Positions 2,907 through 30,738 are shown, counted from the first letter of the stretch. The stretch is DNA of 64,000 nucleotides from Candidatus Saccharimonadia bacterium (GCA_035479295.1 DATIIV010000020.1:10027-74026), one strand, 5' to 3'. Notes: generated by a model not told the origin, from the letters alone. Program-made: numbers and translations.

Positions 2907-3331
2907 GGGTCGGCACTACCGCTAGCGGTCTCATCGTCCGGCTCGAGCCCGACGACGACGTCATCGCCCAGATTCAGGCGGCGGCCGCAGCCCACCACGT
3001 CGTCAACGCCGAAGTCACCGGTCTCGGCTCGGTCGAGGCGCCCACCCTGGCTCACTATCGCCGCGATACCAAACAGTTCACCGAGCGCACCTTCGACGGT
3101 ATCTTCGAGGTTGTCTCGTTGGTCGGCAACATCAGCCTGACCGACGACCGTCCGACCCTTCACTGCCACGTCATCATTAGCGACGCCGGCATGACCACCC
3201 ACGGCGGCCACCTGGTGCGCGCCACCTGCTCGGCCACATTGGAACTCATTATTCGCCAGCTCGATACCACCTACATCAAACGCCGCGATGATGCTGTCGG
3301 ACTAAACGTCTGGCAATTGCCAACCGCCTAA
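2903..3331 (+). CDS. DUF296 / PPC-domain protein (predicted DNA-binding)
   Basis: The pattern FEVVSLVGNIS...RPTLHCHVIISD...GGHLV...ELIIRQL matches the bacterial DUF296/PCC fold. ATGA overlap with the upstream gene. Confidence 0.65.
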   Translation: MRVGTTASGLIVRLEPDDDVIAQIQAAAAAHHVVNAEVTGLGSVEAPTLAHYRRDTKQFTERTFDGIFEVVSLVGNISLTDDRPTLHCHVIISDAGMTTHGGHLVRATCSATLELIIRQLDTTYIKRRDDAVGLNVWQLPTA

Positions 3332-3394
3332 TGGGCAAAATAGACGAAGCCCCGCCACCCAGTCGGGCAGCGGGGTGTGCAGAGAGCAGGGCGA

Positions 3395-27377: not shown

Positions 27378-27398
27378 ATTCGCTCAACTAGTCTGCTA

Positions 27399-27430
27399 CA
27401 AAAACGACCCCCGCTGGGGTCGTTTTTGTG
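27399..27430 (+). terminator. rho-independent terminator AAAAACGACCCC-CGCT-GGGGTCGTTTTTGTG
   Basis: Perfect 12-bp stem plus T-run at the end of the ribosomal cluster. Confidence 0.7.
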
Positions 27431-27552
27431 TTGGGGTAGGCCGATCCTGACTCTTGCGAATTATGTCCAAACCAAGTACAAACAGGGTAGCCACTTTGTA
27501 GAGGCAAGGGGGAAGCACCAATCGGGTTACTCAACGAGGCAGGGAGATAACC

Positions 27553-28191
27553 GTGAAAGATTCGAGACGGCTCAGGGAGTTCCTGGAGCTCATCGAGGCA
27601 GAGGACATCCTGGAGCTCGATTCCAAGACCAGGACGATGCTGGTGGAGCGCCTGCACTTCGTTCGCGGCTCGGGCAAGCCCATTCCGCACATGCAGCTGA
27701 ACGACTACGTGTCGGAGCAGGAGACGGCTGGGCTCATTGGCCGGGAGCGATCGGAAGATCAAATCTGGTGTTTGATGCTGACCGAGATGGGCAGCGCCAA
27801 GTTGGCCGACCTGCGGGGGGCGACCCCTGCGATAACTAAGCCGGAGCTGCCGGCCGCCGAACGAGGGCCGGCCACGGCAGTCGAACTTGATTTGGTCGAT
27901 CTGTCAGAGCCCGAGCCGGAAGTGGTCGCGTCCGCTAGGCCGGTCCGTCGTCAGGCTCGGCCAGGGCGGTCGGTGATCGTTCGGCCGCCTCGGCCGCTGA
28001 CGGTGGCTCCGCCGGCCGCGCCCGAACTCGACGAGCCCACCGACCGGGCCCTGGCCAACTTCCTGGAGCTGGCGAGCGTGGCACCCTCGCCGGCCGGCCG
28101 GGCCTTCTGGGCTGCCAAGGCGGCAGCTCGCCAGTTGGCCCTGGAGGTGAACGCCGCCTGTGGCAACGCCCTGCCCGTTAGTGCCGCCTAG
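27553..28191 (+). CDS. hypothetical protein: structured N-terminal ~90 aa (possible wHTH) plus Pro/Ala-rich disordered tail
   Basis: 212-aa ORF. The C-terminal half is low-complexity (PPRPLTVAPPAAPELDEP...). Confidence 0.4.
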   Translation: MKDSRRLREFLELIEAEDILELDSKTRTMLVERLHFVRGSGKPIPHMQLNDYVSEQETAGLIGRERSEDQIWCLMLTEMGSAKLADLRGATPAITKPELPAAERGPATAVELDLVDLSEPEPEVVASARPVRRQARPGRSVIVRPPRPLTVAPPAAPELDEPTDRALANFLELASVAPSPAGRAFWAAKAAARQLALEVNAACGNALPVSAA

Positions 28192-28210
28192 CCATCACTC
28201 CCGGCTAGCC

Positions 28211-28245
28211 GATGGCCTCAACCCACCTCTGGGGTTGAGGCCATC
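28211..28245. repeat. perfect 14-bp inverted repeat GATGGCCTCAACCC...GGGTTGAGGCCATC (hairpin / bidirectional terminator candidate)
   Basis: Seen in the sequence between convergent genes. Confidence 0.5.
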
Positions 28246-28254
28246 TCCTTGCCT

Positions 28255-29004
28255 CTACGCTACCTCGAAGGTAACCAAGATTGGCAAGTGGTCCGACAGG
28301 CTTGTCTGCAATAACTCAGATTTGGTAACTTTTACGCCTGTGGTATGTAGCACATAATCCAGCCGCCATCTCAGTTGGTCATAATGGTGCGGTCCGATCG
28401 CAAACGGCTTGGTGGTCCAGGTCTTTTGGGCCAAAGCTGGCCCCGCGTGACGCAGGCCTTGGCGCAGCCGACGCCCCGCCCACGATGACGGCGTAGCGTT
28501 AAAGTCACCGGCCAGTAGGTAGGGCTCTGTTGGCGTCTCGGCCAGAATCCGCTCCACCATGGCTCGCTTGGCCGCGCTGGCCCGAAACTGCGGATGAAAT
28601 GGCAGGTGTGTGGTGCCCACCGCTATGACCTGACCGCCGGGCAGCGTCACCTGCACCCCCAGATACAGCCGTTCATCGCGCTTCACCTGGCCATTCTCTA
28701 CCAAGCCCGGCTGCAGCACGATTCGCCGCCGCTCCTGCAGTTCAAACCGCGAAAATATTCCGTCGCCCATTAGTGTCTGCCCGCCGTCGGGTAGCCGCAT
28801 CGGCCCGTACTTATAAAAACCGTAGTAGCCCAGCGTCTCCGCCACATGCGCCCCCACGTCCGCGTACTGCGGCAGATAATTCCGTGTTAACTCCTGCAGG
28901 CACACAATATCAGGCTGCACCGACCGCAAAAACTGCCCGATCGCCGCCGGATCCTCATTATACATACTATTCCACTGCAGCAGGCGGAAGCTCATATCAT
29001 TCAT
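28255..29004 (-). CDS. endonuclease/exonuclease/phosphatase (EEP) family protein
   Basis: N-terminal LLQWN...DIVCLQE and C-terminal SDHLP motifs typical of the EEP fold. Confidence 0.65.
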   Translation of the reverse strand: MNDMSFRLLQWNSMYNEDPAAIGQFLRSVQPDIVCLQELTRNYLPQYADVGAHVAETLGYYGFYKYGPMRLPDGGQTLMGDGIFSRFELQERRRIVLQPGLVENGQVKRDERLYLGVQVTLPGGQVIAVGTTHLPFHPQFRASAAKRAMVERILAETPTEPYLLAGDFNATPSSWAGRRLRQGLRHAGPALAQKTWTTKPFAIGPHHYDQLRWRLDYVLHTTGVKVTKSELLQTSLSDHLPILVTFEVA

Positions 29005-29259
29005 TATATAGTCTTACTCCGTTATATATTGAAAGCCCTAGGCATTACCGGTATAGTCGACCATTGGAGGACCCAATCTCGGGCTCTTCAGGACCAAGCA
29101 GTTGCTGCGAGCCAAGAAGGGTAAGCGTAGGCATGAGACATATGCCTGGACTGCAGCTCAAGAACCGGCGTAGGAGTAGCCCGCCTGGCGATGAGGGCGG
29201 CGACTGACAAGAGCAGCTGACGTGCTTCCACTCTCCGATCTCAACCAGTAAGGTCTGAC

Positions 29260-29334
29260 ATGATTCTGATGCACGCACCTCGCCGAGGCGAGGAAAAAGG
29301 CAACGGCTACATGAGTGGTGGCCAGGATGCCTGA
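29260..29334 (+). CDS. micro-ORF, N-terminal part of Gly-rich peptide A (MILMHAPRRGEEKGNGYMSGGQDA)
   Basis: TAAGGT 6 nt upstream. Its tail KGNGYMSGGQD aligns with peptide B QGNNGSRGGEN. Confidence 0.3.
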   Translation: MILMHAPRRGEEKGNGYMSGGQDA

Positions 29335-29425
29335 GGGACGGGGCGGCGAGGACGACAACGGCTTTCACGGCGGCGAGAACGACCAGGGCCACCATGGCAC
29401 CAAGGAAGGCAACGGCGGCAAATAG
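29327..29425 (+). CDS. micro-ORF, Gly/Asn/His-rich peptide A, second frame (MPEGRGGEDDNGFHGGENDQGHHGTKEGNGGK)
   Basis: In a +1 frame relative to 29260-29334. It shares the DNGFHGG motif with peptide B. GC3-rich codons (GGC/AAC/CAC/GAG). Confidence 0.3.
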   Translation: MPEGRGGEDDNGFHGGENDQGHHGTKEGNGGK

Positions 29426-29499
29426 CACGTTTGTCTCCACTCGGGGCTGGCTCGCCTGTCCTGGCTCCAAATCCAATTCTCAATGGAAGAGGTCTAGTC

Positions 29500-29586
29500 G
29501 TGACTAACGTCAAATTGCAAGGCAACAACGGCTCTCGCGGTGGCGAGAACGGCGGCGACGGGTTTCACGGCGGCGGGCGTCTGTAG
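29500..29586 (+). CDS. micro-ORF, Gly/Asn-rich peptide B (VTNVKLQGNNGSRGGENGGDGFHGGGRL), GTG start
   Basis: GGAAGAGG ribosome-binding site 7 nt upstream. Paralogous to peptide A. Followed by a terminator. Confidence 0.4.
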   Translation: MTNVKLQGNNGSRGGENGGDGFHGGGRL

Positions 29587-29647
29587 GTTGGCGGAAAGTG
29601 CGCTGAGGGCAACTAGAATCGCCTGACTTGGCTTCGCTAGCTGCACC

Positions 29648-29702
29648 GGTCCGGCCTAGGGGCGTTTGCGCACCTCTAGGCCGGACTAAGCTTTTTGCTT
29701 AG
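29648..29702 (+). terminator. compound hairpin GGTCCGGCCTAG...CTAGGCCGGAC plus AAGC-TTTTT-GCTT
   Basis: 11-bp stem and a second small stem with a T-run downstream of the peptide ORFs. Confidence 0.45.
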
Positions 29703-29742
29703 CCAGTAGCCGAGTAGACCATAAGCACGATATAATGCGCTT

Positions 29743-30738
29743 ATGGATAAGCACGATCGCCGCACCATTATCCGCGTCTCGCTGGCCTCGCTCATTCTGA
29801 TGCTGGGCGGCACGGTTGGCTTTATGTTGACCGCTGGATTGGCCCCTGCCCAAGCCTTTTATGAGACAGTAATGATCCTGCTAACGCACTTTGACCACTA
29901 CAGTTTCCCCGATGGCGGCTCGCGCGTTTTGGTAATTGTGTTAATTCTGAGCTCGTATGCGTTGATTGCCTATTTGCTTAAGCTCTTTGCGGAAAGTATC
30001 ATGGGCTTAAGTGGTAATGTACGGAAACTTCGGGTGAAAGCTAAAGTTGATAAATTAAGCGAGCATTATATTGTGTGCGGCTTGGGGCGGGTAGGCTCGC
30101 AGGTGGCGCGCGAGATGCACCAAGAGGGAGTGTCGTTTGTGGCGCTCGATCGTGATGCGGCCAAAGTTGAAGAGGCGCTGGCCGCCGGCTATTTGGCGCT
30201 GCAGCTCGATAGTAGTCAAGAGGAGGCGCTGGTGGCGGCTGGCATTGAGCGCGCTAGTGGCTTGGTAGCCTGCCTTAGCGAAGACTCGCTGAACTTATTT
30301 GTGACGCTGGCGGCGCGGTCGCTCAACCCGCATCTGTACATTGTGGCTCGAGCCAATCAGCCGGCCAATGAGGTGAAGCTAAAGCGGGCTGGGGCCGACC
30401 GGGTGGCTATGCCGTATCGCATTGGCGGGTATCATATGGCATCGATGGCGCTGCGACCGAACGTGGTCGATTACATGGATATTGTGTCGGGTAAGGGCGG
30501 TACGGCCGATCTGGAGGTTGAGGAGATGGTGGTGGGGGAGCGGTCGCGGCTGGCGGGGCATCATCTGGGCAAGTCGCTGGCCGAGGGCGAGATTGGCGCC
30601 ACCGTGATCGCCATTAACGGCGTGGACGGGACGAGCCGGGTGCGGCCGACCGGCAAGGAGATGATTTATCCGGGCGACCGGCTGATTATTTTGGGCTCTA
30701 AACGTGATTTAACGGACGCTTCGGCGCTGATTCGATGA
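29743..30738 (+). CDS. potassium channel protein with TrkA-N/TrkA-C (RCK) domains
   Basis: Two TM helices, then HYIVCGLGRVGSQVA Rossmann (RCK/TrkA-N) and a C-terminal TrkA-C-like domain. Confidence 0.75.
   Translation: MDKHDRRTIIRVSLASLILMLGGTVGFMLTAGLAPAQAFYETVMILLTHFDHYSFPDGGSRVLVIVLILSSYALIAYLLKLFAESIMGLSGNVRKLRVKAKVDKLSEHYIVCGLGRVGSQVAREMHQEGVSFVALDRDAAKVEEALAAGYLALQLDSSQEEALVAAGIERASGLVACLSEDSLNLFVTLAARSLNPHLYIVARANQPANEVKLKRAGADRVAMPYRIGGYHMASMALRPNVVDYMDIVSGKGGTADLEVEEMVVGERSRLAGHHLGKSLAEGEIGATVIAINGVDGTSRVRPTGKEMIYPGDRLIILGSKRDLTDASALIR

Follow-up and report, generated by a model that had tools for sequence, protein, structure and literature searches.

Short glycine-rich reading frames in a repeat-bearing spacer of a Candidatus Saccharimonadia genome

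Introduction

The RTX repeat is a calcium-binding nonapeptide with the consensus GGxGxDxUx (PF00353). The criteria for bacterial hydrophilins are a glycine content above 6% and high hydrophilicity. The small glycine-rich general-stress proteins of the YciG/GsiB type have the KGG repeat (PF10685). Hpn of Helicobacter pylori is a small, histidine-rich, metal-binding peptide. Here we describe a spacer of about 740 bases (29005–29742) that has short reading frames for glycine-, asparagine- and histidine-containing peptides. It is present in a metagenome-assembled genome of Candidatus Saccharimonadia (TM7), in a stretch of 64,000 nucleotides (GCA_035479295.1, DATIIV010000020.1:10027–74026) referred to as the window. 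An earlier note on this DNA placed the spacer between an EEP nuclease gene and a K+ channel gene, and this placement was borne out: the flanking genes are an EEP gene (minus strand, 28255–29004, PF03372) and a TrkA_N/TrkA_C gene (plus strand, 29743–30738).

The reading favoured here, to which about an even chance is given, is that the spacer is lineage-specific, repeat-bearing DNA, and that its open reading frames (ORFs) are by-products or decayed remnants and not maintained genes. This reading stems from an insertion that is lacking in 20 relatives, from searches that found no similarity, from the non-coding appearance of the frames elsewhere in the spacer, and from repeat units that lie out of phase. 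It is also based on two features of gene calling, namely the apparent silence of the NCBI Prokaryotic Genome Annotation Pipeline (PGAP) and the calling of one of the frames, A32, on only one of three contigs.

Anatomy of the repeat

The spacer has a degenerate family of direct repeats, with about six units of 27–30 nt in two clusters, A and B, each of which is inside a short plus-strand ORF. The consensus of the unit is GGC GGC GAG RAC GAC AAC GGC TTT CAC. Cluster A is listed in Table 1; the copies of cluster B are at 29512 and 29542, 30 nt apart. Tandem Repeats Finder reports no array in the spacer at a score of 30, because the copies are too diverged.

The best match between the clusters, 29346–29381 against 29517–29551, has a local score of 40, compared with 17.6 ± 2.6 for shuffled sequences (maximum 28), and the ungapped match of 24 of 27 positions exceeds those of 1000 mononucleotide shuffles and 1000 codon shuffles. 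Since the match exceeds all shuffles, the paralogy between A and B is real. The earlier proposal of tandem paralogous ORFs is thus correct in that the sequences are true duplicates, but the homology is limited to a core of about 36 nt, and similarity in the downstream flank is not significant (p = 0.36).

Codon phase is shared by A and B over 25 nt of this core; in its 5′ part, a 1-nt indel shifts one copy relative to the other. Nor does the unit at 29287 keep the phase of the three units that follow it, as the spacing to the next unit is 55 nt, or 2 × 27 + 1. The claim that all DNA repeats fall in the same codon phase therefore holds for the 25-nt core but not for the unit at 29287 or for the 5′ part of the A/B core. 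In the in-phase 25 nt, the alignment shows three substitutions. Two are radical second-position changes (TTT to TCT, Phe to Ser, and CAC to CGC, His to Arg) and one is synonymous. These look like the substitutions expected from neutral drift, though three are too few for a test, and the out-of-phase copies look more like products of neutral drift than of frame-preserving selection.

The spacer is the right end of a 2.3-kb insertion situated between the rpsI terminator and a conserved leaderless trkA promoter, and a mechanism can be proposed for the origin of its repeats. A 27-nt unit of GNC type may have been amplified by local tandem duplication within the spacer, and a piece of about 36 nt may then have been copied about 170 nt downstream. 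A sequence of G-N-C triplets is free of stop codons in both the sense frame and the aligned antisense frame, and short ORFs thus arise automatically on both strands. Such a repeat would read as Gly/Asp/Asn/His on one strand and as Ala/Val/Leu on the other, and its open frames, with their resemblance to host-preferred codons, could account for the micro-ORFs as well as for the antisense shadows. On this view, the micro-ORFs either came about as a side effect of the repeat or are what is left of a short glycine-rich coding sequence that has decayed. The probable working parts of the spacer are a divergent promoter region beside the EEP gene, a twin hairpin that would end plus-strand transcription ahead of trkA, and the trkA promoter. 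That the reading frames are without function is what we infer from the anatomy of the repeat and from the findings that follow.

Lineage specificity and searches for homologues

The locus was compared with those of 20 species-level relatives (L004–L023), which were found via TrkA (59–80% amino acid identity) and have the backbone order rpsI, trkA, rluD. The rpsI–trkA interval is only 81–162 nt long in eight of the 20 and consists of the rpsI terminator hairpin followed by the conserved trkA promoter motif. In the remaining relatives it is filled by 0.5–3.2 kb of unrelated cargo, which includes WhiB-like genes, a threonine-synthase-like gene, a kinase-like gene and an antiporter-like gene. In the window, the interval holds the 2.3-kb insertion, which consists of an orphan ORF of 212 amino acids (hyp212), the EEP gene and the spacer. 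Judged from the loci compared, the rpsI–trkA interval (27378–29742 in the window) is a hypervariable hotspot. The 2.3-kb insertion is missing from all 20 of the relatives' loci, and no copy of the spacer was found in these by blastn, nhmmer, tblastn, blastx or motif regular expressions.

At the amino acid level, searches of a word index of 5.8 billion proteins, of JGI metagenomes and of IMG/VR gave no homologue of peptide A (also as a fused 54-residue query); these searches need near-exact short words, and distant or uncalled homologues could escape them. Peptides A and B have no match in Pfam, NCBIfam, PHROGs or PADLOC, the libraries against which B was searched (Pfam and NCBIfam for its 28-residue form), and Pfam offers no family at E ≤ 10 for A32, fused A, B28 or a longer form of B, B51. 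A conserved small-protein family with its frame kept in other genomes was not found in the word index, JGI, IMG/VR or the 20 related loci. The earlier note could not place the peptides in a described family; this still stands after family, word-index and metagenome searches (family libraries for peptide B), and a search of the literature found nothing specific to such a system. The note also suggested secreted or RiPP-like peptides (ribosomally synthesized and post-translationally modified peptides). This suggestion is not upheld. Inspection of the peptides shows neither a signal peptide nor a transmembrane segment; they lack Cys and are poor in Ser/Thr, and the adjacent genes include no RiPP-type enzyme.

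The plus-strand reading frames

Coordinates of the reading frames and of the other features of the spacer are given in Table 1.

Table 1. Features of the spacer and its edges (positions in the window)
Feature	Position	Strand	Properties
Promoter-like TTGAAA-17-TATAGT	29029..29057	+	Divergent region upstream of EEP; predicted plus transcript start near 29064; weak evidence
Minus ORF, 143 aa	29045..29476	-	Antisense shadow of cluster A and a non-coding tail; score -42 bits, tail -43; rejected as gene
ORF A24, MILMHAPRRGEEKGNGYMSGGQDA	29260..29334	+	24 aa; one out-of-phase unit; TAAGGT-N5-ATG; coding score -4.0 bits; stop overlaps A32 ATG
Repeat cluster A	29287..29422	+	Units start at 29287, 29342, 29369, 29396; period 27 nt; first unit offset +1 nt
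ORF A32, MPEGRGGEDDNGFHGGENDQGHHGTKEGNGGK	29327..29425	+	32 aa, ATG; three in-phase 27-nt units; longer form from 29315, 36 aa
Shine–Dalgarno-like GGAAGAGG	29485..29492	+	7 nt before GTG at 29500; read from sequence
Minus ORF, 50 aa	29494..29646	-	Codon-aligned antisense shadow of B; score -4.2 bits; no family matches; rejected as gene
ORF B28, MTNVKLQGNNGSRGGENGGDGFHGGGRL	29500..29586	+	28 aa, GTG; two repeat units 30 nt apart; coding score +4.1 bits
Twin hairpin	29649..29703	+	14-16-bp GC-rich stem 29649-29686, then CTAAGC-TTTTT-GCTTAG 29687-29703
trkA promoter motif CATAAGCACGATATAAT	29720..29742	+	6 nt between -10 and ATG; marks right edge of insertion

The predicted A32 peptide is 3.3 kDa, with an isoelectric point of 5.0, 34% Gly and a grand average of hydropathy (GRAVY) of −1.95. 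The B28 peptide is 2.8 kDa, with an isoelectric point of 8.5, 36% Gly and a GRAVY of −1.06; the longer form, B51, extends from 29431 to 29586 (51 amino acids). Shine–Dalgarno-like motifs are found before 21 of the 52 long ORFs in the window, compared with a background of 8%. Of the ribosome-binding sites proposed earlier, that before the GTG at 29500 was confirmed, but the distance between TAAGGT and the ATG at 29260 is 5 nt instead of the stated 6 nt. A32 is preceded only by a weak Shine–Dalgarno sequence, GGTGG. The earlier note also viewed copy A as split by a +1 frame change, in a pseudogene or by programmed frameshifting. Such a change is unneeded, as the ATG at 29327 opens the 32-residue frame. 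A programmed +1 frameshift at GCC-TGA-G was rejected as well, as there is no slippery codon and the in-frame ATG makes the frameshift needless.

Among three near-identical Logan contigs, a gene caller reports A32 only on SRR9179562_1011801; the remaining two are also long enough to hold the ORF. The NCBI protein accessions of EEP and TrkA are consecutive, which suggests that PGAP made no coding-sequence call in the spacer.

Coding potential and strand

Coding potential was scored by a 3-periodic second-order Markov model for which 27 long ORFs from the window served as the training set. The score of A32 (99 nt) is +13.2 bits, compared with 12.9 ± 6.8 for true sense frames of the same length and −1.1 ± 6.8 for codon-aligned antisense frames; since one codon-like unit has been copied several times, the bits are not independent and such scores overstate the evidence. 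Outside the repeat clusters the spacer scores negatively in all six frames, with about −13 bits for the linker between A and B.

In the window the preferred codons are GGC (68% of Gly), GAG (84% of Glu), AAC (60%), GAC (61%) and CAC (68%). The earlier statement that the frames use the host-preferred GGC, AAC, CAC and GAG codons therefore agrees with the codon usage of the window. An antisense reading would need the rare codons GTC, GTT and CTC. The earlier note also excluded an antisense artefact as the source of the paralogy, because copy B lies outside a minus-strand ORF. As stated, this argument fails: copy B is also under a codon-aligned minus-strand ORF (29494–29646). The conclusion on the strand stands on codon usage. 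If anything is coding here, the plus strand carries it.

The 143-residue minus-strand ORF has no Pfam or NCBIfam match. An exhaustive HMMER search of this ORF against 1.84 billion representatives gave one match, P0121 (query 29048–29476, E = 1e-22), which is a 932-residue translation of a tandem satellite repeat of about 52 residues. The E-value is spurious because it is the sum of 15 near-identical stretches at chance level, each of about 34 bits or less. Accordingly, repetitive targets can inflate the significance of a search. The earlier note raised the alternative that this minus-strand frame is the conserved one; it is not conserved, as its sole match is the translated satellite.

Genomic setting of the insertion

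Over 6.75 kb, the window differs from contig CAYVKC010000002.1 of GCA_964451975.1, and from the Logan contigs, only at base 29672. The neighbouring genes of the spacer are those for EEP, the TrkA-like protein and RluD, and the orphan hyp212 ORF.

The closest homologue of the EEP protein is 58% identical and is in an unrelated context; four contexts of EEP homologues are unlike this locus. A scan of JGI metagenomes by way of EEP found no comparator locus. The hyp212 ORF (27553–28191) has a single homologue, of 57% identity, on a 1.2-kb JGI contig. It has no match in Pfam, NCBIfam, PHROGs or PADLOC and is itself an orphan; its 3′ half is 70–75% GC and Pro/Ala-rich. In comparison with the contig of a sister species, identity is similar in all six frames (53–64%), and constraint on the 212-residue frame thus looks weak.

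This 1.2-kb sister-species contig (L029; JGI/IMG 3300049000, Ga0494383_0277448) has hyp212 and the convergent 3′ end of the EEP gene, with 77% amino acid identity in EEP and 73–77% nucleotide identity in the insertion. A second contig from the same sample (L030; Ga0494383_0097254) has 84% nucleotide identity over trkA–rluD–holB. Judging from these contigs, the hyp212/EEP insertion is shared by a sister species in 3300049000. Both contigs stop before the spacer: L029 ends inside the EEP gene, and L030 covers only the 3′ end of trkA.

With respect to origin, the possibility that the spacer is a remnant of the hotspot cargo seen in relatives, such as the WhiB-like genes, was rejected, as blastx of the spacer against all ORFs in the relatives' loci gave only noise. 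A mobile-element origin was also rejected. No attachment site (att)-like flanking duplication was found around the insertion, the spacer DNA matched nothing in the phage and plasmid collections searched, and there were no PHROG or PADLOC matches.

Two features of the hotspot and one of the spacer may be added. Cargo genes that are apparently WhiB-like, as read by eye from a CxxC...WGG...ERR motif and not from a family model, are in loci L008, L012, L015, L016 and L019. Locus L012 has two additional fragments of the rpsI 3′ end (1674–1736 and 3277–3336), which suggests repeated integration at that site. In the spacer, a 17-nt inverted repeat (14 of 17 positions matching; 29036–29052 and 29645–29661) flanks about 590 nt. 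It is made from the palindromes CCTAGG and ACCGGT and its significance is marginal by estimate; no second copy was seen, and it was not treated as a miniature inverted-repeat transposable element.

Promoters, hairpin and RNA structure

At the left of the spacer, the promoter-like site matches at 10 of 12 positions; one such site was found, compared with 0.4 expected in shuffled sequences. At the right, the twin hairpin has a predicted free energy of −40.6 kcal/mol (z = −4.65). Base 29672 is A in the window but G in GCA_964451975.1 and in the Logan contigs. The G restores a C-G pair of the stem and changes the free energy to −43 kcal/mol. A hairpin terminator was proposed for this region (29648–29702). 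The strong hairpin with its GC-rich stem is real, but there is no U-tract directly 3′ of the stem: TTTTT begins 6 nt further on, in the loop of the second hairpin, and a terminator consensus scan does not call the structure. The hairpin between the convergent hyp212 and EEP genes is likewise without a U-tract, so that structures of this kind may serve as terminators in this genome. The twin hairpin probably acts as a terminator or insulator before the trkA promoter.

The trkA motif, CATAAGCAC-GATATAAT, is kept in at least eight relatives (L004, L005, L006, L009, L013, L018, L020 and L023), about 6–9 nt before the start codon where read. Because the −10 motif ends 6 nt before the start codon, the trkA mRNA is probably leaderless. 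The −10 element and the trkA start codon are enclosed by an exact 11-nt direct repeat, ATAAGCACGAT (29721 and 29747), which might be an operator. Other genes in the window (starts at 1503, 11480, 33336, 34143 and 60598) have a TATAAT-like hexamer 6–9 nt before the ATG and no Shine–Dalgarno sequence; leaderless translation seems common in this genome.

Known non-coding RNAs (tmRNA, RNase P, riboswitches) were rejected, as neither Rfam nor ARAGORN finds any in the spacer. Rfam gave no family at the gathering score; relaxing the threshold to E ≤ 10 brought only chance matches of microRNA models to the hairpin. A structured RNA was rejected as well: folds of the whole unit (647 nt on the plus strand), with z of −0.98 for the plus strand and −2.2 for the minus strand, are no better than those of shuffled sequences.

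Weighing of the interpretations

Several of the findings weigh against the spacer being mere repeat-bearing DNA. ORF A has the highest coding score per base of 490 small ORFs (25–60 amino acids) in the window, above the real rpmG, and has preferred codons almost throughout. The sense frame outscores the aligned antisense frame by 11.9 bits in A and by 3.4 bits in B. The spacings of the units, 27, 27 and 30 nt, are multiples of three. B28 has a good Shine–Dalgarno sequence and a GTG start, and the ATG of A32 overlaps the TGA of A24 (29332–29334; ATGCCTGA), as in translationally coupled genes. With a promoter-like site before them and a strong hairpin after them, the ORFs look like one unit. The coding scores, though overstated, are not what a random spacer usually gives. 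These properties, together with the glycine content, the strong hydrophilicity of the peptides and the call of A32 by one gene caller, raise the question of whether A32 and B28 could be genuine orphan genes of recent origin that encode micro-proteins. Such a pair of paralogous genes, perhaps recently born in the hotspot by amplification of the 27-nt repeat, appears possible but doubtful. A transcript of their own would run from the promoter-like site to the twin hairpin. B28 would be translated from its Shine–Dalgarno sequence and GTG, and A32, which is acidic, would possibly be coupled to A24 via ATGCCTGA. The products, disordered cytoplasmic peptides of about 3 kDa, might be hydrophilin-like protectants or weak metal binders via His, Asp and Asn. 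Such genes would be at odds with the lack of any homologue in the searches made, with the out-of-phase repeat copies and with the neutral-looking substitutions between the paralogues; the ribosome-binding site of A32 is weak, PGAP is apparently silent, and the score is inflated by the repeated unit.

A broken gene is an improbable source of the same frames. It would have been a plus-strand glycine-rich repeat gene of about 110 codons (29260–29586), interrupted by a +1 frameshift near 29330 and by a stop at 29423. It is true that a 1-nt shift is needed to align the unit at 29287 with those after it, that A24, A32 and B51 can be joined by two frame changes, and that the repeat is codon-like in composition, but both the linker and A24 score as non-coding, so that only the repeat itself looks coding. 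There is also no intact homologue of the fused peptide, and the blastx comparison with the ORFs of the relatives' loci is empty. An RNA function is somewhat less probable again. The plus-strand unit could be a small RNA, or a leader-peptide attenuator that controls read-through of the hairpin into trkA. The layout resembles that of leader-peptide attenuators, with a small ORF and then a strong hairpin ahead of a co-directional gene, and the promoter-like site would fit such a unit; but trkA has its own leaderless promoter 3′ of the hairpin, also present in relatives that lack the insertion, no alternative antiterminator structure is evident, and the stop codon of B is 62 nt before the stem, too far for classical attenuation. 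The absence of an Rfam family and the unremarkable fold of the plus-strand unit speak against an RNA as well. Minus-strand genes for hydrophobic, Ala/Val/Leu-rich membrane peptides (29476–29045 and 29646–29494), co-directional with EEP, are very improbable. Both antisense frames are open and transmembrane-like and the repeat core is slightly positive in antisense (5.8 bits), whereas the longer frame has a tail that scores as non-coding and only the spurious satellite match, the codons required are rare, and no Shine–Dalgarno-like motif is seen by eye before either start. A type I toxin-like hydrophobic peptide on the minus strand was rejected on similar grounds: the frame is a 143-residue run with a non-coding tail, no Shine–Dalgarno sequence by eye and no homologue.

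Significance and comparison with known systems

Lineage-specific, repeat-bearing DNA is thus the reading with which the comparison is made, and the spacer peptides represent a modest lead rather than a discovery, as evidence for real genes was not found outside this species. If the peptides are real, they would provide a clean case of gene birth by repeat expansion in the reduced genome of an ultra-small symbiont and would enlarge what is known of the small proteins of Patescibacteria, which are very poorly charted. Otherwise, the spacer serves as a warning that GNC-type repeats imitate coding on both strands and can reach the top of a codon-usage ranking without being genes. The rpsI–trkA hotspot and the leaderless trkA promoter may help genome annotation more than the micro-ORFs do.

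The spacer units resemble RTX repeats in that they have nine residues, GG at the start and a richness in Asp/Asn. They differ in sequence: the units are GGEDDNGFH, GGENDQGHH and GTKEGNGGK, with D, N or E in place of G at position 4 and N or Q in place of D at position 6. In addition, there are only three units, PF00353 is not matched and no type I secretion genes are nearby. The likeness to Hpn is in small size, a presumed cytoplasmic location and the presence of His together with Gly, Asp and Asn; unlike Hpn, the spacer peptides have only one to three His each, no His runs and no Cys, and no homology was found.

The resemblance to hydrophilins and to the YciG/GsiB type is compositional. The peptides are very small, with 34–36% Gly, internal repeats, predicted disorder and a strongly hydrophilic character (GRAVY −1.1 to −1.9), and in both glycine content (34% and 36%) and hydrophilicity (GRAVY −1.95 and −1.06) they fall within the composition of hydrophilins, a compositional class that is silent on expression and function. 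In contrast to YciG and GsiB, they have no KGG motif, no Pfam (PF10685) or NCBIfam match, no conservation and no known stress-regulon context.

The spacer can be filed, from its sequence, as a probable further case of repeat-derived orphan small ORFs, a known kind, with at most a putative function. It differs from orphan or de novo small ORFs in that some copies are out of phase, so that it may never have been a gene. It is like those that arise by tandem duplication in its lineage specificity, in a short repeat with a period that is a multiple of three, in frames that are open in both sense and antisense, in having no homologues, and in its location in a variable hotspot.

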